Of a stretch of 18,934 nucleotides of DNA, positions 2,952-14,791 are shown one piece after another. The DNA comes from Sedimentisphaerales bacterium. Its GTDB lineage: Bacteria; Planctomycetota; Phycisphaerae; Sedimentisphaerales; Anaerobacaceae. The notes below the pieces were generated by a model that worked only from the letters and a program-made list of their open reading frames with translations, made no database searches and had not been told where the DNA came from. The DNA is taken from contig JBHIDV010000011.1 in NCBI GenBank assembly GCA_046760285.1, forward strand, positions 1 to 18,934, written 5' to 3'. Numbering within the stretch: the first letter of the stretch is position 1; each line of letters starts with the position of its first letter. The translations under genes and the position numbers were made by a program.

Positions 2952-4385
2952 ATGAAAATATCTGTTGGGCCTGCCCCGTCACATTGGGGTAGGGAAAGAA
3001 TTGAAAGTTTCTATCGTGAGCTGTGCCAAAGTCCCGTGGATTATGTGTATCTCGGAGAGATTGCTTGTCCAGAGCGTTCATGCTTTACACCTGATTTTTT
3101 TAATAGGCTCTGCGATGAGCTTTCACAGGCGGGCAAAAAGGTGTACGCATCCTCGTTAATCCTCGTTAGAGATGAGAAGCAATATCGTGCCTTTGAAGAG
3201 ATGGCACAACGATTACAGCGTGTAGAGATCAATAGCCCTGCGTTTCTGGGCCTCGCCCGGCGCTGGCCTTGCGTGACCGGCACGTTTCTTAACGTATATA
3301 ACTCAGCCGCTGTGAATATTCTGGCAAAACATATGGTTGAAAGGATAGTATTATCTCCTGAACTTAGCTTTCAATCAATCACCTCCATTACCAAGAGGTG
3401 CACAGTGGCCACGGAGCTTATAGTCCACGGATACGTACCAATTGCGATGTCCGGCACTTGCCAGACGGCACGCTCACTCGGACAGAATGGCCACGGATGT
3501 GGAAAGTCCTGTCAGTGTTATCCCGAAGGAATGGTATTAATGGCAGGTGACCGGTCTCTGTTTCGTATTGAGGGACCACAGACACTCTCAGCCGCAATCT
3601 ATTGCCTGGTAGAGTATCTGCCGTGGTTGGAAAAGGCAGGCATCGATACAATACGCATACTGCCTCAGTGGAATCATACTGGTCGTATTGTGAATATCTA
3701 TCGGGATGTGTTGCATAATCGCAGAGATTGTCGAGATGCCGTAGAAGAGCTAAAAGCAATTACGCCGGTGGAACTCTGCAATGGTTGGCTCTTAGGCAAA
3801 GCTGGGTGGCTTTATGAATCACCAGACAGAACTCAGAAGTCAGAAGACAGAAATCAGAAAACAGAAGTCAGAAATCAGAAGTCAGAAGTCCGTCTTCTGT
3901 CGTCTGTCTTCTGTCGTCTGTCTTCTGTCGTTTGTCCTCTGCCATCTGTCCTCTGTCGTCTGTCCTCTGTTGTCTCTTCGAAGGATTGTCGCCGTGCTTG
4001 GTCTACTAATGACATCATTCGTGAGGTGAATCAGCTTTTAGAGGTAATGCATGATGACCCCCAATTCATCAAGAAGATTGCTGGGTTTAAAGGGGTGGTG
4101 GTTGTGCTTAGTGCCTCAGATACTGGACGAGAGTTCATAATCGAATTAAATAAGCAAGGCGTGCGGGTCCGACCCTATAGCGGCCAGCCCTTCGATGTCA
4201 ATATTCAAGCTACTGAACAGGTTCTTTGGGCGGTCCTCTCAGGTCAGATGGATGCAGACACAGCGTTCTTTAGCGGTAAGGTCCGCATTTGTGGCTCCAT
4301 AGCCACAGCATTTCGTGTTAAAAACAGTTTTCTAAGCCTCCTTCAAAGGCATCTGAGTCAAACCATGAAAGCTAACACAAGTTAG
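2952..4385 (+). CDS. U32 family UbiV-like protein fused to a C-terminal SCP2 (UbiT-like) lipid-binding domain
   Basis: The N-terminus MKISVGP...VDYVYLGEIACPERS parallels E. coli YhbV/UbiV (MKYSLGP...VIYLGEAVCSKRR). The Cys cluster C-x12-C-x3-C (SGTCQTARSLGQNGHGCGKSCQC) plus the N-terminal Cys matches the UbiV 4Fe-4S ligand pattern. The last ~120 aa (VVVVLSASDTGREFIIEL...FFSGKVRICGSIATAFRV) look like an SCP2 sterol-carrier fold. The two parts are joined by a repeat-encoded low-complexity linker. Confidence 0.8.
   Translation: MKISVGPAPSHWGRERIESFYRELCQSPVDYVYLGEIACPERSCFTPDFFNRLCDELSQAGKKVYASSLILVRDEKQYRAFEEMAQRLQRVEINSPAFLGLARRWPCVTGTFLNVYNSAAVNILAKHMVERIVLSPELSFQSITSITKRCTVATELIVHGYVPIAMSGTCQTARSLGQNGHGCGKSCQCYPEGMVLMAGDRSLFRIEGPQTLSAAIYCLVEYLPWLEKAGIDTIRILPQWNHTGRIVNIYRDVLHNRRDCRDAVEELKAITPVELCNGWLLGKAGWLYESPDRTQKSEDRNQKTEVRNQKSEVRLLSSVFCRLSSVVCPLPSVLCRLSSVVSSKDCRRAWSTNDIIREVNQLLEVMHDDPQFIKKIAGFKGVVVVLSASDTGREFIIELNKQGVRVRPYSGQPFDVNIQATEQVLWAVLSGQMDADTAFFSGKVRICGSIATAFRVKNSFLSLLQRHLSQTMKANTS
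3823..3977. repeat. Heptamer tandem array (CAGAAGT-like, ~10 units) followed by its inverted complement (GTCTTCT-like, ~12 units): a long imperfect hairpin inside the CDS
   Basis: Direct reading gives cagacag aactcag aagtcag aagacag aaatcag aaaacag aagtcag aaatcag aagtcag aagtc, then c gtcttct gtcgtct gtcttct gtcgtct gtcttct gtcgttt gtcctct gccatct gtcctct gtcgtct gtcctct gttgtct. The symmetry centre is at ~3890/3891. Confidence 0.9.
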
Positions 4386-4423: not shown

Positions 4424-5158
4424 ATGAAAAAAAATAAAAAAACTAATGCTGTACAGTATAGCACAGCGCGCAGGGGCCCATTTGGACGGCGTAAAATGCT
4501 GAAAGTCGGCGCTTTAGGTGCGTTGGCTGGTTACACTGGCACAGCGAAAGCCCTGGCCAGCAGCAAATCCACTATTAAACAAAAACGCTATGCCATGGTG
4601 ATTGATTTGCGAAGGTGTATTGGCTGCCATGCCTGCTCGGTAGCCTGCAAATCGGAGTTTAGCGTGCCTCTGGGGGTATGGAGGTCCTGGGTCAAGCAGG
4701 CCGAACGCGGCAAGTTTCCGAACACTCAGCGTCATTTCCTGCCGCGTCTATGCAACCACTGTGAGTACCCCACGTGCGTAGAGGCCTGCCCGACCAAGGC
4801 GTCGTACCAGCGGGACGATGGAATTGTTCTGGTCCGCGAAGAGCGATGTATCGGTTGTAGGCTATGTGTTTCAGCCTGTCCGTACAATGCACGCTTCTTT
4901 CACCCAGATGAGAAGATTGCTAACAAGTGTACTTTTTGTGTGCATCGTGTGGACCAGGGCCTGGTCCCCGCGTGCGTCAACACATGCCAGGGCAGAGCAC
5001 GTATTTTCGGTGACCTGAATGACCCAACGAGTGAGGTCGCTAAGCTCGTCGCCAGAGAACCTGTCCAGGTACTCAAACCAAAACTCGGAACTGAGCCCCG
5101 CGTTTTTTATATCGCCTCAGATACAGGGCTGATGGGGCGCATTAGAAAGGAGATCTGA
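4424..5158 (+). CDS. Four-cluster 4Fe-4S ferredoxin-type electron-transfer subunit of a molybdopterin oxidoreductase (TtrB/PsrB/PhsB-like) with Tat signal
   Basis: Strong SD AAAGGAGA. A twin-arginine motif GRRKMLKVGALGALA precedes an AxA cleavage site. There are four ferredoxin Cys clusters: CIGCHACSVAC, CNHCEYPTCVEACP, CIGCRLCVSACP and CTFC...C...C. Confidence 0.85.
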   Translation: MKKNKKTNAVQYSTARRGPFGRRKMLKVGALGALAGYTGTAKALASSKSTIKQKRYAMVIDLRRCIGCHACSVACKSEFSVPLGVWRSWVKQAERGKFPNTQRHFLPRLCNHCEYPTCVEACPTKASYQRDDGIVLVREERCIGCRLCVSACPYNARFFHPDEKIANKCTFCVHRVDQGLVPACVNTCQGRARIFGDLNDPTSEVAKLVAREPVQVLKPKLGTEPRVFYIASDTGLMGRIRKEI

Positions 5159-5159
5159 A

Positions 5160-6023
5160 ATGGAACAAGTAATCTATTACAATATCCACCACCATGAGGC
5201 AATGGGTCCACTAATTGTTCTGTACTTTTTCCTGAGTGGTTTAGGGGCGGGTGCTTTTCTGACGGCGGTGGGCTTGCAAATTTTCGGCAGCGAAAAGTAC
5301 GAAAAAATCGCCAGAACTGCTGCCATTGCCGCACCTGTCATGCTTATTCCGGGGCTGCTATGCCTTCTTTTGGACCTGGGTAAGCCTTTGCGGTTTCTCA
5401 ACCTGTTTTTTTACTTCAATCCCTCCAGCGTTGCTTCTTGGGGGGTGTGGATAATAAATATCTTCTTGGTGATTTCTGTGCTCTACGCATTTTCGCACGT
5501 GATAGGCAAAGCCCAAAGAGCAAAGCCGTTAGCCTATCTGGGCCTCGTTTTTGCCTTGGCAGTAGGGTTTTACTCTGGCCTGCTCTTGTACCAGATGCAC
5601 GGCTATGTTCTATGGCACTCGGCGCTGCTGCCGATGCTCTTTTTAGTCTCCGCTATTGCCTCTGGGCTTGCGGTGGTGCTGCTTCTCTCGGGCTCGGCTG
5701 AGCCTGACCAAACTCGTGTACTTTCCAAAGTTCTCGCTGTCGTGGTCGGTATAGATTTGGTACTGGCTTTGACTGAGGTGCTGACCCTGGCGGTCAGTAG
5801 TGGTGAAAAAGCAGAAATCGCCAATGTCATTCTGTCAGGTGGCTATGGCTTTTTGTTCATCGTGGTATACATAATTGCTGGTTTGGCCCTACCACTGTTC
5901 GTGTTGGTACAGCGGCAGGTGACCCGTAATGTTCAAGTGGGTGCTTGCGTTCTGGTTTTGGTGGGAACTCTGGCCATGCGTTATGTAATTGTGGTGGGCG
6001 GACAAGCTCTGCCGTTAAGTTAA
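5160..6023 (+). CDS. NrfD/PsrC-family integral membrane quinol-interacting anchor subunit
   Basis: Strong SD AAAGGAGAT, starting 1 nt after the previous stop. The protein is highly hydrophobic with ~8 predicted helices, and its length and N-terminus resemble PsrC/NrfD. Confidence 0.8.
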   Translation: MEQVIYYNIHHHEAMGPLIVLYFFLSGLGAGAFLTAVGLQIFGSEKYEKIARTAAIAAPVMLIPGLLCLLLDLGKPLRFLNLFFYFNPSSVASWGVWIINIFLVISVLYAFSHVIGKAQRAKPLAYLGLVFALAVGFYSGLLLYQMHGYVLWHSALLPMLFLVSAIASGLAVVLLLSGSAEPDQTRVLSKVLAVVVGIDLVLALTEVLTLAVSSGEKAEIANVILSGGYGFLFIVVYIIAGLALPLFVLVQRQVTRNVQVGACVLVLVGTLAMRYVIVVGGQALPLS

Positions 6024-6038
6024 TCAGCCGATTGGTAA

Positions 6039-6074
6039 GGGTTCCCAGCGGCAATACATCGCCGCTGGGGTCCC
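6039..6074. repeat. 36-nt GC-rich palindromic element, copy B, intergenic and in inverted orientation
   Basis: GGGTTCCCAGCGGC-aatacatc-GCCGCTGGGGTCCC flanked by TAA/TAA. It lies between the NrfD-like stop and the catalytic-subunit RBS. Confidence 0.85.
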
Positions 6075-6093
6075 TAATGAAAGGGAAAGAACC

Positions 6094-8631
6094 ATGTCAA
6101 ATATAACACGACGTGATTTCTTAAAGCTGGGCACGGCCAGCTCAACTCTCGCTGCTGCCGGGCTGGGTGCGGGAGCTACCCTTGCTGGCAGTATCAAGCT
6201 GACTGAAGGGGGTAGGAACTTTTCGGTCCGAACTGGTAAACAGCTAAAAGCCATCCCCTCGGCTTGCTGGCAATGCGTGACTCGTGATGGGATTATTGGA
6301 TACGTGGAAGATGGACGCCTGGTCAAAATCGAGGGCAATCCTAAGCTGCCTCGCACCAATGGCAAGCTTTGCTCCCGTGGCCAAGCTGGAACCAATATAC
6401 TTTACAACCCAGACCGTCTCCTCCATCCTTACAAACGTGTGGGTAAGCGTGGAGAGGGAAAATGGCAGCAAATATCGTGGGAGCAGGCCCTGGACCTGCT
6501 CGTCAACGGAGGCGAGATAGCCGGGCATAAGGTTAAAGGTCTGAAAACCCTTCTCGACGAGGGACACCCCGAAAAATTCATGTTCCACTATGGCCGGATG
6601 AAGGGCAGCGATAGCAAAATCATCAAAGACTACTTTCTGGCCGCATACGGCACTGGGACCGTTGGTAACCACACAGGCATTTGCGAGTCTGCCAAATGGA
6701 CGGCTCACGAGCTTACCTGGGGCAGCCACTATGACAACTGGGATTTTGAGAATACAAAGTTTATCCTGAACTTTGGAAGCAATGTTTTAGAGTGCCATAC
6801 CAATCATGTGCCTGAAGCACAGCGGTGCATCGACGCGATGGCAAAAGGTGTCCCCATGTACACTTTCGATGTGCGTCTGTCCAACACAGCAGCCAAGTCT
6901 ACGGAGTGGATTCCTATCAAGCCTGGCACGGACCTTGCGGTTGTCCTTGCTATGTGCAACGTCCTTCTGCAGAACGGCATTTGTGACAAGCAGTTCATCG
7001 AGACTTATACAAACGTAACTTGTGACGAACTAAAGAGCCATCTGGCGCAGTACACACCGCAGTGGGCCGAGCAGATTAGCGGTGTGCCGGCTGAGAAGAT
7101 CCGTACTATCGCCCTTGCTTATGGTCGAACGAAGCCGAGCGTATGTATCAGCTATCGTGGCGCCGTCATGCACTACAACGGTGTCCAAACGGAGCGGGCG
7201 ATACTTATGCTCGAGGCAATCGCCGGCAATATCGACTGTCCCGGCGGCCGCTGTCGGGCCGTGGGTGCAAAGTGGAAGTTTACCTTTGCCAAACCTACGA
7301 CGAAGGCCAAGAAGCTGCATATCCTTGATGGCGAAGAAGGCGCCTATGCGTATCCGACACACCACACCTCGCACCAAGTTTTCCATATGATCAACAAGGG
7401 CCCGGAACGTCCCGAAATCTACATGATATATTGTTACAACCCTATTTATGTCAATGGTGAGATACAGGCTAATATCGACCTTATGAAGGACGAGCAGAAG
7501 ATGCCTTTCATCGTGGCTGTTGATGTAGCGATCTCGGAAAGTGCGGAACTCGCTGACCTTCTGCTTCCTGACGCAACGTATCTGGAGCGCTGGACTGCTG
7601 ACGATATGGTCTGTCCGAGTCAAGTCCCTGAGTATTATATACGCCAACCACTGGTCAAGCCTTTAGGTGAGGCACGTAACTTTTGCGACGTGGTCTGTGA
7701 CATTGCCAAGCGACTCGGTCTGGACCTTGGATTCAACTCGGCGGAGGAGTTCGTCAGGAACGGCTGTGAGAACACCCCAGGTGTGAAGGAAGCAGGTGGA
7801 TTTGAGTACATGAAGAAGCACGGCGCCTGGTACGATAAGAGTGCCAAGCCGGCCTATTTCAGCCACACCAAAGAGGTGGATGTGACCGGAGCTACCCTGG
7901 ACGAGGCCACAGGGGTTTACTACAAGAAGCAGCCTGAAGACACAGACTATTCTTCACTCGATAGCAAACACGCCGCCGCCCAGTACGTCGCCCAGCGATG
8001 TGGCGACGGAGTTGCGCGAAAGGGTTTCCCACCCGACAAGCACAGATGGAAAACAGGTCTCTTTGAGATCCGCTCGAAAGCGCTCGCTGATAAAAGCTTC
8101 GATGCATTGCCCTCATGGATGCCCATCCCCGAACATGAAAAGATGGGGCCGGATGATTTGATCCTGACCACCTTCAAGGTCAATGTTCAGACCCACTCGC
8201 GCAGTCAGAACTGCAAGTGGCTCACAGAAATATTTCACGAAAATCCAGCGTGGATCCATCCGGCCACGGCAATGGCACGAGGCATCAAAGATGGAGATAT
8301 GATAAAAGTGATCTCGGCGATTGGTGAGATCACTACCAAGGCCAATGTGACTGAAGGTGTTGTTCCCGGAGTTGTAGCGATCTCAAACCACATGGGACAC
8401 TGGGCGTATGGCGGTTACGCCTCCGGTAAGTCATGCCAGGAACTCTTTAGCCACGAATGTGAGATCGACTGCCACCACAAGTGGTGGGGCAAGAATGCCA
8501 AAGACCGAGGTACCAAGGTATGGCGCGACGGAAGGGGCGTACACGTGAACTGGATAATTCCCAACGTTGGTGATCCTATTGGAGGCGCACAACGATGGAT
8601 GGATACAGTTGTGCGGGTGACTAAGGTGTGA
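6094..8631 (+). CDS. Molybdopterin (Mo/W-bisPGD) oxidoreductase catalytic subunit with Tat signal (TtrA/PsrA/SrdA-like)
   Basis: Twin-arginine motif TRRDFLKLG. The N-terminal Fe-S (FS0) motif C58-x2-C61-x3-D65-x27-C93 follows. The 845-aa length fits the DMSO reductase superfamily. The gene lies directly downstream of the ferredoxin and NrfD subunits. Confidence 0.9.
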   Translation: MSNITRRDFLKLGTASSTLAAAGLGAGATLAGSIKLTEGGRNFSVRTGKQLKAIPSACWQCVTRDGIIGYVEDGRLVKIEGNPKLPRTNGKLCSRGQAGTNILYNPDRLLHPYKRVGKRGEGKWQQISWEQALDLLVNGGEIAGHKVKGLKTLLDEGHPEKFMFHYGRMKGSDSKIIKDYFLAAYGTGTVGNHTGICESAKWTAHELTWGSHYDNWDFENTKFILNFGSNVLECHTNHVPEAQRCIDAMAKGVPMYTFDVRLSNTAAKSTEWIPIKPGTDLAVVLAMCNVLLQNGICDKQFIETYTNVTCDELKSHLAQYTPQWAEQISGVPAEKIRTIALAYGRTKPSVCISYRGAVMHYNGVQTERAILMLEAIAGNIDCPGGRCRAVGAKWKFTFAKPTTKAKKLHILDGEEGAYAYPTHHTSHQVFHMINKGPERPEIYMIYCYNPIYVNGEIQANIDLMKDEQKMPFIVAVDVAISESAELADLLLPDATYLERWTADDMVCPSQVPEYYIRQPLVKPLGEARNFCDVVCDIAKRLGLDLGFNSAEEFVRNGCENTPGVKEAGGFEYMKKHGAWYDKSAKPAYFSHTKEVDVTGATLDEATGVYYKKQPEDTDYSSLDSKHAAAQYVAQRCGDGVARKGFPPDKHRWKTGLFEIRSKALADKSFDALPSWMPIPEHEKMGPDDLILTTFKVNVQTHSRSQNCKWLTEIFHENPAWIHPATAMARGIKDGDMIKVISAIGEITTKANVTEGVVPGVVAISNHMGHWAYGGYASGKSCQELFSHECEIDCHHKWWGKNAKDRGTKVWRDGRGVHVNWIIPNVGDPIGGAQRWMDTVVRVTKV

Positions 8632-9524
8632 AAAGACAAAGCCAGAAAAACCCTTTAGGTTGGCCAGCGGTTAGAGAGCAGTGGCGTGAGCAGGCCATCA
8701 GCCGCAGTAATTGCTATGGTCTCTTGGCGCTTGTATTCCGAGGGCCACCGACTCGCGATGTTGTTGAGCGGCTCAGGACCCCATCATTGGCCCAGGCCCT
8801 CAACTACTTAGGATACGACGTCACACAGGAGCTCGCTGGCGAGCTTGAAGCATTGACGGAGCGCCTCCGCCAGCAATATACACGTATCTTTAGTGGTCCA
8901 GGGCCCCACGTCTCCCTCTATGCTTCGGTACACTATGCTAAGGGACCCCAGCCGCAAAAAATGGCGGCTGGGAGCCCTAATGAGGGGCGGTTCTGGGGTG
9001 ATTCTACTGTGTGGGTGAAACACTTTATCGAAACGACAGGACTTTCCTTCACAGGTAACTGGGACAGCATACCCGACCACATAGCAATCGAGCTTGAACT
9101 GATGCAACGGCTTACTGCCTACGAGGCTCAGCTATGGGCAAGCTTACCGGAACAATCGCATAATAAGAACAACATGGGCAAGCAAATCTGCCAATGTCTT
9201 CAGACACAAGAGCAGTTCCTCCGTGACCATCTGTGTTTATGGATTCCTCGATTCTGTAAGTGTGTATTAGAGACATCCACCGGTACTTTTTACCAGAAAA
9301 TGACGAAACTAACGAAGTTTCTCGTCCTCTCTGACGTTGAAAATGTAGTGGCTGCTCAAAGCATACTATCTGACTCATCTACAAAACGTCGACAACGCAA
9401 CGGTCTGTCCCAGCAGGAACCTAATATGGTAGGGACCCCGCTCCGCGGGAACCCAGCCAAGCCATTGGGTTCCCAGCCGCCATTTTTCGCGGCTGGGGTC
9501 CCATTCCAGGAGGAAAAGACATGA
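8628..9524 (+). CDS. TorD/DmsD/NarJ-family redox-enzyme maturation chaperone-like protein, with repeat-derived insertions and C-terminal extension
   Basis: GTG start overlapping the upstream stop (GTGA). Family motifs YTRIFSGPGPHVSLYASVH and IPDHIAIELELM are present. The gene contains palindromic element copy C in frame and ends with a ~70-aa tail encoded by the nested palindrome D. Confidence 0.6.
   Translation: MKRQSQKNPLGWPAVREQWREQAISRSNCYGLLALVFRGPPTRDVVERLRTPSLAQALNYLGYDVTQELAGELEALTERLRQQYTRIFSGPGPHVSLYASVHYAKGPQPQKMAAGSPNEGRFWGDSTVWVKHFIETTGLSFTGNWDSIPDHIAIELELMQRLTAYEAQLWASLPEQSHNKNNMGKQICQCLQTQEQFLRDHLCLWIPRFCKCVLETSTGTFYQKMTKLTKFLVLSDVENVVAAQSILSDSSTKRRQRNGLSQQEPNMVGTPLRGNPAKPLGSQPPFFAAGVPFQEEKT
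8942..8977. repeat. 36-nt GC-rich palindromic element, copy C, inside the TorD-like CDS
   Basis: GGGACCCCAGCCG-caaaaaatgg-CGGCTGGGAGCCC flanked by TAA/TAA. It encodes GPQPQKMAAGSP in frame. Confidence 0.85.
9432..9502. repeat. Nested palindromic element D (short palindrome D1 9432-9454 plus 36-nt copy D2 9467-9502) immediately upstream of the receiver gene RBS
   Basis: D1 is GGGACCCCGC-tcc-GCGGGAACCC. D2 is GGGTTCCCAGCCGC-catttttc-GCGGCTGGGGTCCC. The outer arms 9432-9439 and 9495-9502 and the inner arms 9447-9454 and 9467-9474 are complementary. D2 is flanked by ATT/ATT. Confidence 0.8.
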
Positions 9525-9985
9525 GCAGTCAACCAAAGAAGGTGCTTGTGGTAGATGATGACCAGAGTGCTATAGCGTTCGTGAAGGCTGCGCTCGAGCC
9601 AGAGAAGTACACCGTTATAGGCGCAGGTGACGGACTGGCCGGGCTGGAGCAAGCTCGCCAGGAACCTCCCGACCTTATCATACTTGATGTGTACATGCCT
9701 CGTCAGCCAGGATTTTACACGCTACGGGATATAAAAAACGACCCTAAAACTAAAGATATCCCTGTCATCATGCTTACTGGGGTCGGGGAGCGACTGGGCA
9801 TTACATTTTCTACGCAGGACATCTACGACTTCCTTGGGATTGAGCCTGATGTCTACCTCGAAAAACCGGTTGACCCGCTGTTCTTACGCAGGGTAGCAGA
9901 CAGACTCTCAGGAATAAATTCTGCTGCCAACGGCCGCGCAACCCCAAAGGACGTAAAAGATGGCAACAGCAAGCAACATTCTTAA
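9521..9985 (+). CDS. Stand-alone response regulator receiver (CheY-like REC) protein
   Basis: Strong SD AGGAGGA. It has the acidic pocket VLVVDDD, the phospho-acceptor Asp in IILDVYMP and no output domain (154 aa). Confidence 0.85.
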   Translation: MSSQPKKVLVVDDDQSAIAFVKAALEPEKYTVIGAGDGLAGLEQARQEPPDLIILDVYMPRQPGFYTLRDIKNDPKTKDIPVIMLTGVGERLGITFSTQDIYDFLGIEPDVYLEKPVDPLFLRRVADRLSGINSAANGRATPKDVKDGNSKQHS

Positions 9986-11051
9986 GTGGGCTGGACAACT
10001 CAACTGCAATATACCGTTGTTACATACGAAGATGGCGCAAGCTGCCTGTCGAAAACTGGCGGCGGATAAGAGTCCTCAAGCGGTGCCTTTCTTGGTGTCG
10101 GCCCTTGCCCACAACGATGAACAGGTAAGAATGATTGCTGAGAATGGGCTCAAATCACTGAGTGACCCGCAGGCCATCGATGCTCTTCTATTGGGTTATG
10201 TTTTTACCAAACAAGAGTCTGTCCGCAGAATCCTCACAGCCCTTGGACGTAAAGTGACAGAGGCTGCTGAGCTGCCCGCCCCGTCGTCCGAGTCTGCACC
10301 CGCAACTGCAGTGCAAGCATGGCAATTTCGCAACGATAAGGATGGGTCAATTTTAGCCTTTGTGCCAGAGGGAGACTTCCTGGCCGGTAAGGATAACTTC
10401 TCTGTGCATCTGCGGCCATATTACCTGGCTCTTACGTGTGTGACTAATGCCCAGTATGCACGGTTTCTGACGGAGCGAAGACCAAATTCGGCAAAACTAA
10501 CCAGTTGGATTAATCTCCGGCAGGCCTCGGCTGCTATTCAAAAAGAAGGGCACGCATATCAGGTGGACCCCGAAAAGGCAGAGTTACCGGTCATATGGGT
10601 TACCTGGGAGGGTGCAGCGGCATACTGCAAATGGGCTGGCTTACGGCTGCCCAGCGAACTGGAATGGGAGAAGGGTGCAAGAGGAGTTGACGGAAGGCTG
10701 TATCCGTGGGGCGATGAGTGGGAGGCAGGAAGACCCATGCTATCGGCAGGAGAGCGAAAACCGGAGGAAATAAGTAGTGTTTGGGCACACCCAGCCGCCC
10801 GCAGTCCATACGGACTTTATCAAATGATCGGAAACGTCTACGAGTGGTGCGCCGACCCGTACGAAGAAAATGTATATCAGCGTTATTCACAAGGCGACCT
10901 GAGGCCGCCACTCCAAGGAGAGCACAGGGTGTTGCGAGGCGGACCTTGGCGTTTTGGCACCCCCGCCCATTTGAGGACGGAATATCGCAAGGGTACTGTC
11001 TGGCGCGCCGGTACATTTCTCTGCGGTTTTAGATGTGCCAAGTCTCTGTGA
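9960..11051 (+). CDS. HEAT-repeat plus FGE-sulfatase (formylglycine-generating-enzyme-like, SUMF1/EgtB fold) domain protein
   Basis: N-terminal PBS-lyase-type HEAT repeats (AVPFLVSALAHNDEQVRMIAENGL). C-terminal FGE-family signatures WEGAAAYCKWAG, GNVYEWCADPY and RGGPWRF. The 9960 start overlaps the REC gene by 26 nt, so a later start is possible. Confidence 0.75.
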   Translation: MATASNILKWAGQLNCNIPLLHTKMAQAACRKLAADKSPQAVPFLVSALAHNDEQVRMIAENGLKSLSDPQAIDALLLGYVFTKQESVRRILTALGRKVTEAAELPAPSSESAPATAVQAWQFRNDKDGSILAFVPEGDFLAGKDNFSVHLRPYYLALTCVTNAQYARFLTERRPNSAKLTSWINLRQASAAIQKEGHAYQVDPEKAELPVIWVTWEGAAAYCKWAGLRLPSELEWEKGARGVDGRLYPWGDEWEAGRPMLSAGERKPEEISSVWAHPAARSPYGLYQMIGNVYEWCADPYEENVYQRYSQGDLRPPLQGEHRVLRGGPWRFGTPAHLRTEYRKGTVWRAGTFLCGFRCAKSL

Positions 11052-11082: not shown

Positions 11083-12258
11083 ATGTTGCTGTTTGACAAA
11101 GCTCTGAGGATTGTTCTAAAATCCGCTCGCTTCACCGGCACCGAACGTGTTGACATTGCTCATGCGGTGAATCGGATATTGGCGGAGGATGTCAAATCGG
11201 ACATTGACATGCCTCCTTTCAATAAAGCAGCCATGGATGGCTACGCTTGTCGCAGAGAAGACCTTGCCAAGGAACTAACCGTAATAGAAACAATTCCTGC
11301 AGGTGTGTCCCCCAAGCGAACAATCGGGGCGAATCAATGCGCTAAAATCATGACTGGTAGTGTGGTGCCGGTCGGTGCCAACTGTGTGATTATGAAAGAG
11401 TATGCAGAAACTCGGACGAAGAACACTGTTTCTTTTGTCGGCGAAAAGACCGCCGACAACATTTGCCCAAAAGGTGAAGACATCAAGGCTGGTGATGTTG
11501 TCTTGCACAAGGGTACCTTGTTACGTCCACAGCACATTGCGGTTCTCGCATGTGTGGGCAGCGCCCGGCCAATGGTGGCGAAAAGGCCAAAGGTGGGGAT
11601 ATTCGCAACGGGTAATGAGCTGATTGAGCCAGCATCCCAGCCTGGACCATCCCAGATAAGAAACAGCAACAGCTTTCAGCTTGCCGCGCAGGTTGAAAGT
11701 ATAGGTGCGGTTGTAAGAAATTACGGTATTGCCAAAGACACCCACCAGGCTATTGACAATATGTTCAAAAAAGTTGCTGAAGAAAATCACGTTGTCATCG
11801 TCTCTGGCGGTGTTTCGGTAGGTGAATTCGACATTTTACCGACAATTCTTAGGCAAAACAATGTCGAGTTATTGTTCGAGAATATCGCCTTAAAGCCGGG
11901 AAAACCTACGGTCTTTGGCATATCGGAAAAGGCCTATTGTTTCGGCCTGCCCGGAAACCCCGTAGCATCCTTTGTATTATTCGAACTGATGGTTAAACCA
12001 TTTCTTTATAAGCTGATGGGCCATGATTACGCACCGCCTGATATTCAGATGCCTCTTGGAGAATCTATCAAGCTCAAGAAAGTGAAAAGGCAAAGTTGGG
12101 TCCCAGTTGCAATAACAGGGGTAGGCACATTAAAGCCGGTTGAATATCATGGGTCGGCGCACATCGGTGCTTTGTGTAAGGCGGATGGCTTGGTCAGTGT
12201 CGATGTTGGTGTGGCAGAAATTGCAGCGCCAACGGTGGTTCGAGTCAGGCTGATTTGA
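11083..12258 (+). CDS. moeA: Molybdopterin molybdotransferase MoeA
   Basis: The ~390-aa length, N-terminal L.F.EAL-like start and PFNKAAMDGYA motif fit the MoeA/gephyrin-E family. The gene is adjacent to moaA. Confidence 0.88.
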   Translation: MLLFDKALRIVLKSARFTGTERVDIAHAVNRILAEDVKSDIDMPPFNKAAMDGYACRREDLAKELTVIETIPAGVSPKRTIGANQCAKIMTGSVVPVGANCVIMKEYAETRTKNTVSFVGEKTADNICPKGEDIKAGDVVLHKGTLLRPQHIAVLACVGSARPMVAKRPKVGIFATGNELIEPASQPGPSQIRNSNSFQLAAQVESIGAVVRNYGIAKDTHQAIDNMFKKVAEENHVVIVSGGVSVGEFDILPTILRQNNVELLFENIALKPGKPTVFGISEKAYCFGLPGNPVASFVLFELMVKPFLYKLMGHDYAPPDIQMPLGESIKLKKVKRQSWVPVAITGVGTLKPVEYHGSAHIGALCKADGLVSVDVGVAEIAAPTVVRVRLI

Positions 12259-12288
12259 ACGTCAAGCAGCTCTGGTGGTTTGCAGGTC

Positions 12289-13245
12289 ATGCATGTGGAT
12301 GTTGATTATTTGAGAATTTCTGTTACCGACAGATGCAATCTACGGTGTATTTACTGTAATCCTTTAGGCCGTTGCGATTTTATAGAACATAAAGAGATTT
12401 TAAGATTTGAAGAGATATACCGTATTGTCAGACTTTTTGTCGAATGCGGCATCAGAAAGGTTAGGCTTACCGGAGGTGAGCCATTGGTCAGAAGAAATAT
12501 TGTTCAGTTGGTCCAAACACTGGCAGCGATACCACTTGATGATCTGGCGCTTACAACTAATGGAGTGCTTCTGGAACGAATGGCAGAAGAGCTCAAAGCC
12601 GCGGGGCTGAAACGCGTTAACATAAGTGTTGACTCTGCAGAGAGGGAAAGTTACAGACAGATTACCGGCTTTGACTTGTTGCCAAAGGTAACCAAAGGCA
12701 TTTATAAGGCCATAAAAGTTGGTCTCATGCCTGTCAAGACCAACAGCGTCATAATAAGAGACATCAATGTTTGCCAGATATTATCGCTTGCACAGATGAG
12801 TATTTATTTGCCGGTCATGGTCAGATTCATTGAATATTGCCCAGCCTGCAAGCATACGAAGCCAGCGAAATACTATGTACCTAACAGTGAAGTCCGCGAA
12901 ATTATTGAACGCAAATTCGGACCACTTTCAAACCTTTTGGCAGGCGGTACGAATGGTCCAGCTCTTTATTTCAAGATTAGAAATTCAGCCGGGGCCATAG
13001 GTTTCATAAACGGTAGATCTTCGGTATTTTGCCATTCGTGTAATCGGCTTCGGCTGACCAGCGACGGAAAACTCAAACCCTGCCTGTACTCAGCTCACCA
13101 CTATGACTTAAAAAAACTCATCAGAAGCGATGCTACTGACGGACAGATACTGGCTTTGCTAAAAAAAATAATTGCAGAAAAGTCCAGGTTCACAAAGCTG
13201 AATTCGTTTAGAGACGAATTCTCTATGCGCAAAGTTGGAGGTTGA
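12289..13245 (+). CDS. moaA: GTP 3',8-cyclase MoaA (radical SAM)
   Basis: YLRISVTDRCNLRCIYC radical-SAM CxxxCxxC motif and the C-terminal second cluster FCHSCNRLRLTSDGKLKPC are present. The ATG at 12289 follows GGTGG; the ORF track extends the frame to TTG at 12280. Confidence 0.88.
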   Translation: MHVDVDYLRISVTDRCNLRCIYCNPLGRCDFIEHKEILRFEEIYRIVRLFVECGIRKVRLTGGEPLVRRNIVQLVQTLAAIPLDDLALTTNGVLLERMAEELKAAGLKRVNISVDSAERESYRQITGFDLLPKVTKGIYKAIKVGLMPVKTNSVIIRDINVCQILSLAQMSIYLPVMVRFIEYCPACKHTKPAKYYVPNSEVREIIERKFGPLSNLLAGGTNGPALYFKIRNSAGAIGFINGRSSVFCHSCNRLRLTSDGKLKPCLYSAHHYDLKKLIRSDATDGQILALLKKIIAEKSRFTKLNSFRDEFSMRKVGG

Positions 13246-13462: not shown

Positions 13463-14791
13463 ATGAAGGAGAAAAGTTTTGATGTGTTAGTAAAATCGTT
13501 GCTCATCGCAACCACGCTTTGGCTGTTAATGCCCTCAATTGTATGGGCCGCGCAGGACACTGATGCCCGGATAAAGAAATTTGAAGCGCAGCTTCAAGCC
13601 TTGCAAACAGAACTGGCAAAATTAAAACCTGATCTGGGCCCTTCCGATTTTCGCGTGTTCTGGAAAGAAGGGCTACGTTTTGAGAGCCAAGATGGAAATT
13701 TCAAACTAAAGTTTGGTGGCCGAATCCAGAACGACTGGATGTGGATAAGCGAAGACGATGACCTTAAGAGGGACGTAGTGGGCGGTAGCGCCTTAGGTGA
13801 CCAGCAAGATGGCACTGAGTTCAGGCGAGCTCGGTTTTACACCAGTGGCCTGATTTACAATAACGTAGAGTACAAGCTGCAATTTGATTTTGCTGGTGGA
13901 GACGCCGACTTAAAGGATGCCTACCTTGGTCTGACAGACTTTCCCATCGGAAAGCTCAGATTTGGTCACTTCAAAGAACCGTTTAGTCTTGAGGAGTTGA
14001 CCAGCAGCAAGTATATCACCTTCCTGGAGAGAGCTCTGCCGAACGTTTTTGCGCCGGGCCGTAACGCCGGTTTTATGCTTCATGGCACCGCCCTGGCCGC
14101 TTCTGACCCCCGGATGACCTGGGCTGCAGGTATATTTAGAGATACAGACGGCTACGGCGAGGGCCAGGATGATGGTGGGTATAACCTCACGGGTCGTGTG
14201 ACGGGGCTACCGTGGTACGAGGATAATGGGGCCTCCTTGCTGCATGTCGGTGTCGCCTATAGCCACCGAAATCCTAATAATGAAACCGTCAGTTTTGCTA
14301 CAGAACCCGAGGCACATTTGGCTGATGACTTTGTTAGTACAGGTTCGGTCGGAAGCGACCGTATAAACCTGGTGGGTCTCGAGGCCGCCTGCGTGGCAGG
14401 ACCTTTCTCTCTGCAGGGTGAATTTATACACTCTAATGTGGACTTGACTTCATCCAGCGCAGACTTAGACGGCTATTATGTCCAGGCCAGCTATTTCCTG
14501 ACCGGCGAACATCGCAAATATAAAACTTCGACCGGCACTTTTGACCGGGTAAAACCGAAAGAGAACTTTCTCTTTGGCGATGGTCCGGGTGCCTGGGAAC
14601 TTGCTGGGCGGTATTCAAACGTTGACCTTGACGATGGCACTATAAGCGGAGGTGAATTAGACAATGTGGCGTTAGGCTTGAATTGGTATCTGAATCCAAA
14701 TATGAGAATAATGTGGGACTACGTGCATTCTAGTAAAGACAATGTGGGCAACGCAGATATGCTTCTAATGCGGCTGCAGGTCGATTTCTAA
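13463..14791 (+). CDS. Phosphate-selective porin O/P (OprO/OprP) family outer-membrane porin
   Basis: Signal peptide with a VWA-AQ cleavage site, an N-terminal coiled-coil (KKFEAQLQALQTELAKLK) and a beta-rich body carrying the family motif FGHFKEPFSLEELTSSKYITFLERAL. SD GAAAGGAAG. Confidence 0.8.
   Translation: MKEKSFDVLVKSLLIATTLWLLMPSIVWAAQDTDARIKKFEAQLQALQTELAKLKPDLGPSDFRVFWKEGLRFESQDGNFKLKFGGRIQNDWMWISEDDDLKRDVVGGSALGDQQDGTEFRRARFYTSGLIYNNVEYKLQFDFAGGDADLKDAYLGLTDFPIGKLRFGHFKEPFSLEELTSSKYITFLERALPNVFAPGRNAGFMLHGTALAASDPRMTWAAGIFRDTDGYGEGQDDGGYNLTGRVTGLPWYEDNGASLLHVGVAYSHRNPNNETVSFATEPEAHLADDFVSTGSVGSDRINLVGLEAACVAGPFSLQGEFIHSNVDLTSSSADLDGYYVQASYFLTGEHRKYKTSTGTFDRVKPKENFLFGDGPGAWELAGRYSNVDLDDGTISGGELDNVALGLNWYLNPNMRIMWDYVHSSKDNVGNADMLLMRLQVDF

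Follow-up and report, generated by a model that had tools for sequence, protein, structure and literature searches.

The FS0 motif of catalytic subunit A contains an aspartate

The window analysed here is an 18,934-nt stretch of a contig from a Sedimentisphaerales (Planctomycetota) metagenome-assembled genome; it encodes a membrane-linked molybdoenzyme, and our subject is the third ligand position of the FS0 iron–sulfur cluster in its catalytic subunit, A. One strand carries, in order, a kinase, UbiU/UbiV/UbiT-like proteins, subunits B, C and A, a chaperone, a receiver protein, a HEAT+FGE protein, MoeA, MoaA and a porin. Subunit A (6094–8631, + strand; 845 aa) is the molybdenum-bis(pyranopterin guanine dinucleotide) (Mo-bisPGD) catalytic subunit, with a twin-arginine translocation (Tat) signal (MSNITRRDFLKLG) and matches to PF04879 (Molybdop_Fe4S4, 9.6e-10, residues 52–105), PF00384 (6.9e-32) and PF01568 (3.4e-20). 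Ahead of it lie subunit B (4424–5158, +), a four-cluster ferredoxin (Fer4_11) with four all-Cys cluster motifs, at residues 65, 110, 142 and 169, and its own Tat-like leader (GRRKMLKVG), and subunit C (5160–6023, +; 287 aa), an NrfD/PsrC-type integral membrane quinol-interacting anchor (PF03916, 2.4e-45) in which a simple hydropathy scan found about eight hydrophobic segments. The twin-arginine motifs of A and B read RRDFLK and RRKMLK, respectively. A NarJ/TorD-family maturation chaperone (PF02613, 8.3e-21) is encoded at 8628–9524 (+). Three catalytic domains, a four-cluster partner, a membrane anchor, a chaperone and a Tat signal give the system the make-up of a MopB complex iron–sulfur molybdoenzyme. 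We conclude that the enzyme is Tat-exported, faces the periplasm and is linked to the quinone pool via its NrfD-type subunit.

An earlier note on this DNA had read the FS0 motif of A as C-x2-C-x3-D-x27-C, with Asp at the third position, and translation and structural alignment bear this out. The motif, C58-x2-C61-x3-D65-x27-C93, spans 6265–6372 (+) within the PF04879 match and is encoded by TGC (C58, 6265–6267), TGC (C61, 6274–6276), GAT (D65, 6286–6288) and TGC (C93, 6370–6372). The best solved relatives of A are PsrA of Thermus thermophilus (2VPW, 1.2e-59) and ArrA (6CZ7, 1.2e-50). In phmmer alignments, the segment CWQCVTRDG lies without gaps over CEGCFWRCG of PsrA and CQGCTSWCA of ArrA, placing D65 in the third-ligand column of FS0. 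The AlphaFold2 model of A (predicted template modelling score 0.83) found its best folds in ArrA, the top Foldseek match (2e-43), and PsrA, supporting an ArrA/PsrA fold. Across a 237-sequence alignment, the third-ligand column holds 125 Asp and 97 Cys.

Aspartate and cysteine alternate at the FS0 site across the family

We assembled the 120 best homologous proteins, 57–100% identical and drawn from many phyla, of which 116 cover the N-terminus. All but three of these 116 (113/116) carry the motif C-W-x-C-V-x-R-D, which argues that the Asp is under selection rather than a product of chance or error. When one genome was searched for each species, 530 of them proved to hold relatives, and site counts were taken from the best 80 loci. 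C58, C61 and C93 are invariant in these loci, and the third site is Asp in 58 (29 GAT, 29 GAC), Cys in 21 (11 TGT, 10 TGC) and Ser in one. The equal use of both Asp codons indicates selection on the amino acid. Cys accounts for 22 of the 23 departures from Asp. Because, the single Ser aside, only iron-binding residues occur at this position, the site probably has a ligand role. The B gene adjoins A in 72 of the 80 loci, and the chaperone gene is found in 68.

The window comes from a metagenome-assembled genome, and the Asp might in principle be a sequencing or assembly artefact, or belong to a decaying pseudogene with a non-functional FS0. We give this explanation practically no credence. The same residue occurs in 58 independent species genomes and 113/116 protein clusters, in both codons, which effectively rules out an artefact, and the open reading frame (ORF) is intact, with its Tat signal, molybdenum ligand and all domains, within a complete operon that includes chaperone and cofactor genes. 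A change from GAT to TGT or TGC takes two base changes, so the argument of the earlier note that Asp65 is no base-call error holds up. Judging from these comparisons, Asp65 is a real substitution for the third FS0 cysteine and is maintained by selection.

The family tree, built by neighbour-joining only and rooted on Cys-bearing outgroups, recovered the window enzyme's family as monophyletic (100% bootstrap). Its base carries Asp, and the outgroups carry Cys. Cys types are nested within the family at least five times, namely in a clade of Proteobacteria (84% bootstrap), in a group of the Scalindua type, in the pair L049 and L078, in the locus L045 and in the protein P0121, and Fitch parsimony counts eight Asp/Cys state changes. 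Some pairs are close. The Asp-type enzyme of L062 is 85–88% identical to the Cys-type enzymes of L043, L065 and L068, from which it differs at the site by a tandem GA-to-TG change within otherwise conserved flanks, and Cys-type L045 is 78% identical to Asp-type L017. On such sequence comparisons, the Asp/Cys switches are recent. A co-variation scan between the two types returned only the adjacent residue (G, A or S after Asp, mostly P after Cys) and phylogenetic noise.

These data also bear on whether another cysteine, distant in the sequence or brought into place by a shift in register, serves as the fourth FS0 ligand and makes Asp65 incidental. A minority of homologs (for example P0026, P0030 and P0059) has a Cys four residues past the Asp (RDxIxC), an extra Cys occurs at position 63 in L027 and P0121, and three further cysteines, C447, C558 and C707, are conserved and specific to the family. 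Yet the +4 Cys is absent from most members, and C447, C558 and C707 are equally conserved in Asp and Cys types and hence do not compensate for Asp. No other conserved Cys separates Asp-type from Cys-type members as a replacement ligand would. A shifted register or an alternative cysteine was rejected for the window protein, which has no Cys between residues 62 and 92 and aligns to PsrA and ArrA without gaps; overall, we hold a substitute cysteine to be quite improbable.

Both the Asp and the Cys type are found with NrfD in some loci and with multihaem cytochromes in others as partner module, and they share the same pocket residues, G167-R168, M169, H193, T194, C197, K201 and Y213. As Cys is nested repeatedly, as pocket and partners are the same in both types, and as the motif recurs independently elsewhere (see below), Asp does not appear to be a substrate marker and looks like an electron-transfer tuning feature.

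The arrangement without NrfD is found in Desulfobacterota and Nitrospirota, where the genes encode an 11-haem cytochrome c, B, A, the chaperone and an 8-haem cytochrome c that carries an MtrC/MtrF-like domain. This layout, seen in L017 (5326–6939 and 11355–12644), is conserved in L018–L026, L033, L037, L045, L049, L055, L060 and L078. The family is widespread in anoxic marine and subsurface bacteria, nearly all of them uncultured; neither the 240 clusters listed nor the best 80 loci from genomes included a cultured member.

A second family and other relatives carry the aspartate motif

A second family, which is independent of the first and shares about 37% identity with the window protein, displays C-H-V-C-N-I-Q-D-x27-C in 116 of 120 proteins (P0431, P0434, P0447 and P0495 among its members), with Ala (P0406) and Thr (P0386) as exceptions at the Asp site. 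Its cultured hosts are Hydrogenophilus thermoluteolus, H. thiooxidans, Sulfuricystis multivorans, S. thermophila and a Ferrigenium strain. In S. multivorans (AP018718.1, locus L081), the enzyme is encoded at 7001–9634 in a B-C-A-chaperone order. The G-R, H-T and K residues of the pocket are shared with the window enzyme. The Asp motif also occurs in other clusters defined at 50% identity (P0138, P0151, P0156, P0164/P0218 and P0244), none of which corresponds to a named family.

FS0 is degenerate or missing in the relatives P0180, P0181, P0185, P0247, P0412, P0427 and P0136. In P0136 the cysteine ligand of molybdenum is missing as well, with Gly in that column. Like QrcB or ActB, these relatives may be derivatives without catalytic activity.

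The window enzyme belongs to no named enzyme family

NCBIfam scans were run on the window protein and on seven other Asp-bearing cluster representatives, and none reached an equivalog cutoff. The best match of the window protein, PhsA, scored 374.3 bits against a cutoff of 694; the scores with ArrA (202 against 1600), TtrA (139 against 1750) and AioA (41.8 against 359) were lower. Among partner models, subunit B scored 243.6 bits with TtrB (cutoff 416) and 216.1 with DsrO, and TtrC reached 49.5 (cutoff 314). Asp at the third position is thus not a common trait of a named clade such as TtrA, a possibility that the earlier note had raised. The same note had proposed that Asp marks a distinct subclade with distinct substrate chemistry. 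The first part stands, as the lineage is distinct and unnamed, with 100% bootstrap and scores below every equivalog cutoff; the second does not, given the nested Cys members with the same pocket and the recurrence of the motif elsewhere. On sequence and fold comparison, we place the window enzyme in an uncharacterised, unnamed family between Psr/Phs and Arr.

Among known systems, PsrABC of T. thermophilus and PhsA are close to the window enzyme, which has in common with them a Tat-exported Mo-bisPGD subunit, a predicted Cys ligand to molybdenum, a B subunit with four clusters and a C subunit of the NrfD type. It differs from Psr in having Asp rather than Cys as the third FS0 ligand, in its gene order (B-C-A instead of A-B-C), in a pocket G-R where PsrA has G-H, and in a length about 80 aa greater than that of PsrA. 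ArrAB of Shewanella sp. ANA-3 (6CZ7) provides the top fold match, equivalent pocket positions and a shared C-terminal GHWAYG-YAS-K signature. By contrast, ArrA has an all-Cys FS0 (CQGCTSWC) and Y166 where the window protein has M169, the gene order of Arr is different, and the partner in the window enzyme's family is NrfD or a multihaem cytochrome.

The B-C-A order and the Tat leaders on both A and B are also found in TtrBCA and in the Ttr-like arsenate reductases of Anaeromyxobacter PSR-1, Pyrobaculum and Melioribacter, and both features have been described as Ttr hallmarks (PMC12949373). Compared with Ttr, the window A subunit is shorter (845 aa versus about 1020), and the C subunit, of 287 aa, would have about eight helices by the simple hydropathy scan, where TtrC has nine. 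Assignment to the Ttr-like arsenate reductase clade, suggested by the B-C-A order, the double Tat leaders and the GR motif, was rejected on a comparison that covered the TtrA model and one Ttr-clade representative, P0265: the window protein scores 139 bits with the model, and P0265 scores 568. The FS0 of P0265 is all-Cys. The "uncharacterized clade" of Barnum and Coates is unrelated.

Other members of the superfamily show that nature tunes Mo-bisPGD enzymes through the ligands of FS0. In NarG-type enzymes, FS0 is bound by His-x3-Cys-x3-Cys, while the first ligand of the window enzyme is Cys and not His. In Aio/Idr, a [3Fe-4S] FS0 with C-x2-C-x3-C-x70-S is combined with a Rieske partner and a molybdenum without protein ligand; the window enzyme, by contrast, has a fourth Cys at spacing 27, its predicted molybdenum ligand is Cys197 and neither an Asp nor lacking, and there is no Rieske gene in the window. 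Duval 2008 gives only an all-Cys FS0 motif for the Arr, Psr/Phs and "Unk" clades, the canonical form being C-x2-C-x3-C-x27-C, and our literature searches on the CX2CX3D motif and on FS0 with aspartate returned no description of an Asp variant.

The nature of the FS0 cluster

FS0 relays electrons between subunit B, with its four clusters, and the Mo-bisPGD site. In the reading towards which we lean, with somewhat better than even confidence, the FS0 of Asp-type enzymes is a Cys3-Asp-ligated [4Fe-4S] cluster: the carboxylate of Asp65 would bind the fourth, unique iron and create a site-differentiated cluster whose potential, spin state and/or proton coupling is altered. Such an Asp would tune the electron wire without setting the substrate, having been exchanged with Cys, in either direction, among nearly identical orthologs. 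That Asp acts as a ligand of a 4Fe cluster is suggested by its conservation, because a vacant site would tolerate many residues. Four irons are favoured over three because a 3Fe-to-4Fe switch between orthologs that are 85% identical and wired in the same way would entail a drastic change in potential. Asp-ligated [4Fe-4S] clusters are established for Asp8 of NsrR (PMC5411485) and Asp/Glu-ligated ones for NfnSL (PMC9503767). These proteins, and Pyrococcus furiosus ferredoxin with its Asp14, combine three Cys with a carboxylate on a cubane, as we propose for the window enzyme, but have folds and roles unrelated to it. Our literature searches turned up no member of the Mo-bisPGD superfamily with a carboxylate-ligated cluster.

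Several points weigh against a Cys3-Asp cubane. In ferredoxins, a cluster with Asp in place of one ligand changes easily from 4Fe to 3Fe and back. Residues that do not ligate iron occasionally occur at the site, namely Ser in L027 and, in the second family, Ala in P0406 and Thr in P0386, and FS0 is wholly lost in P0412, P0427, P0180 and P0181, so that full ligation is not always needed. The AlphaFold2 model was built without cofactors, and its predicted local distance difference test (pLDDT) score in the FS0 region is only about 70–78. The interchange argument uses a neighbour-joining tree alone. Finally, the literature does not agree on the effect that a ligand other than Cys has on the potential (PMC9503767).

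The principal alternative is a [3Fe-4S] FS0 held by C58, C61 and C93, as in AioA/IdrA, with Asp65 as a non-ligand kept for a hydrogen bond, charge or exclusion of the fourth iron, and with a substantially raised potential. Asp-containing ferredoxins are known as 3Fe forms. A 3Fe cluster would also fit the occasional Ser, Ala and Thr at the site and the relatives lacking FS0, and, should an arsenic oxyanion couple be the substrate, a relay of higher potential would be plausible. A natural precedent exists in the superfamily in Aio and Idr (PMC10100899). Yet all 58 members with neither Cys nor Ser at the site (58/58) keep Asp, in both codons, and 22/23 departures are to Cys. Moreover, the Asp/Cys pairs at 78–88% identity, which have partners and pocket in common, would have to undergo a large jump in potential, and the Aio-type motif, the Rieske partner and the absence of a protein ligand to molybdenum are not seen in the window enzyme. 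We regard the 3Fe form as a possible but distinctly less probable state, and the Cys3-Asp-ligated [4Fe-4S] cluster as the better account of the pattern.

The active-site pocket and a possible arsenate substrate

The molybdenum ligand, which the earlier note had proposed to identify by alignment, is predicted to be Cys197 (6682–6684, +). It lies over Cys173 of PsrA and the cysteine of "SSVC" in ArrA, and is conserved in 124/126 family members. G167-R168 (6592–6597, +), invariant in the family, aligns with G164-R165 of ArrA, the "GR" motif of arsenic-binding enzymes, and H193, T194, K201 and Y213 align with ArrA H189, S190, K198 and Y210. These positions are nearly invariant (120–126 of 126 members), and the same columns vary widely among other Psr-like representatives. 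The other ArrA positions in this alignment are reportedly binding residues as well (Glasser et al. 2018). The GR motif is found in all arsenic-metabolising relatives and is absent from true Ttr, and R165 of ArrA binds As(V) (PMC12949373, 2026); the window protein, having G167-R168, does not show the absence typical of true Ttr.

Seventeen Asp-type loci adjoin a gene for a periplasmic binding protein whose nearest relative is the arsenate sensor ArrX, often with a σ54 regulator and sometimes with a kinase. These proteins match ArrX (6X6B) at 8e-44 to 1.3e-56, versus 1e-14 to 1e-20 for the phosphite binder PtxB. ArrX-like sensors lie upstream of A in L005, L006, L008, L012, L013, L017, L019, L021, L022, L024, L025, L033, L045 and L055, the first two being the window's nearest relatives outside Planctomycetota. 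AioX-like (arsenite-sensor-like) proteins accompany the Cys-type alphaproteobacterial locus L034 and the Sulfuricystis locus L081 (4234–5091). The notion that Asp goes with ArrX and Cys with AioX rests on one Cys-type example: no sensor is found near three further proteobacterial Cys-type loci, and Cys-type L045, which keeps an ArrX-like sensor, speaks against it. A link between the Asp/Cys state and the catalytic direction is speculative. The window itself holds no ArrX- or AioX-like sensor.

The window does encode a Porin_O_P anion-selective (phosphate-selective) outer-membrane porin at 13463–14791 (+; PF07396, 1.2e-60), with homologs near A in L005, L006 and L073, which suggests a possible entry route for a phosphate-like oxyanion substrate such as arsenate.

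Because the pocket matches the arsenate positions of ArrA and ArrX-like sensors lie beside 17 Asp-type loci, the family may be an unrecognised arsenate reductase. A fuller proposal is that the family forms an unrecognised class of respiratory arsenic-oxyanion oxidoreductases, most likely arsenate reductases, with a Cys3-Asp FS0, that the repeated switches between Asp and Cys fit the relay to catalytic direction or to the prevailing redox or oxygen conditions, with ArrX-type sensors in Asp-type anaerobes and an AioX-type sensor in a Cys-type alphaproteobacterium, and that the second Asp-FS0 family is a related arsenite-linked enzyme. We put this forward tentatively, as an idea with the odds against it.

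Neighbouring genes and repeat elements in the window

A sensor histidine kinase is encoded upstream of the cluster (557–1903, +) and accompanies the operon in L001 and L003 as well. The receiver protein (9521–9985, +), encoded between the chaperone and the HEAT+FGE gene, is together with the kinase a candidate regulator. The protein with HEAT-repeat and FGE-sulfatase (SUMF1-like) domains (9960–11051, +), between the receiver and MoeA, accompanies the operon in just two relatives, L002 and L003, both of them close and from Planctomycetota. MoeA and MoaA, identified by Pfam (11083–13245, +), serve molybdenum cofactor biosynthesis.

Directly upstream of the quinol-linked operon lie a UbiU-like gene (1896–2948, +; 373 bits against a cutoff of 440), a single ORF (2952–4385, +) combining UbiV-like (222 bits, cutoff 275) and UbiT-like (43, cutoff 47) parts, and a truncated MenG/UbiE-like methyltransferase fragment (12–458). 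They are retained with the operon in L001 and L003. An ArsM identity for the fragment was rejected, as it looks MenG/UbiE-like rather than ArsM-like. The Ubi-like set is one for oxygen-independent quinone hydroxylation, found here in a Planctomycetota genome, outside its usual proteobacterial setting.

Within the ORF at 2952–4385, a 7/14-nt tandem repeat array (CAGAAGT..., then GTCTTCT...) at 3817–3987 forms an inverted repeat with 48-nt arms. The array separates the UbiV-like domain from the SCP2/UbiT-like one, and its translation is a linker of low complexity. What looks like a UbiV-UbiT fusion may be a pair of genes that a hairpin has brought into one frame.

A palindromic element of about 40 nt (TAAGGGACCCCAGCCG-N8-CGGCTGGGAGCCCTAA) is present in four copies and in both orientations, at 2840–2881, 6036–6077, 8939–8980 and 9467–9502. 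One copy lies 17 nt upstream of the start codon of A; the other three are in frame within coding sequence, one at the C-terminus of the UbiU-like ORF and two (8939–8980 and 9467–9502) in the chaperone ORF, which they lengthen to 298 aa versus 221–224 aa in orthologs. The elements resemble those of the REP/RPE type, which enter genes without breaking the frame. Subunit A itself contains a Cys/His-rich insert, SCQELFSHECEIDCHH, after its GHWAYG motif (residues 784–799, window 8443–8490). This insert is restricted to the Planctomycetota subgroup, with a shorter C-E-x-D-C in a wider subgroup, and its region is modelled with low confidence (pLDDT below 50).

Discussion

What is new here, as far as the sequences and the literature we searched can tell, is a conserved and recurrent Cys-to-Asp change, so far unreported, among the FS0 ligands of Psr/Arr-like molybdoenzymes. 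No further relay stands between FS0 and the molybdenum site, and the potential of FS0 is known to modulate activity in this superfamily. If the proposed chemistry is right, a Cys3-Asp (or 3Fe) FS0 would be a third natural route to tuning, the other two being the His ligand in Nar-type enzymes and the 3Fe cluster in Aio/Idr. Orthologs that are 78–88% identical and yet differ at the FS0 ligand offer a ready natural experiment, and the second Asp family, present in cultured, growable bacteria, provides an experimental handle.

The family is large and routinely mis-annotated as thiosulfate/polysulfide reductase. With its Arr-like pocket, ArrX-like sensors and anion porin, it may add to arsenic cycling in sediments; if so, surveys based on arrA would miss its share.

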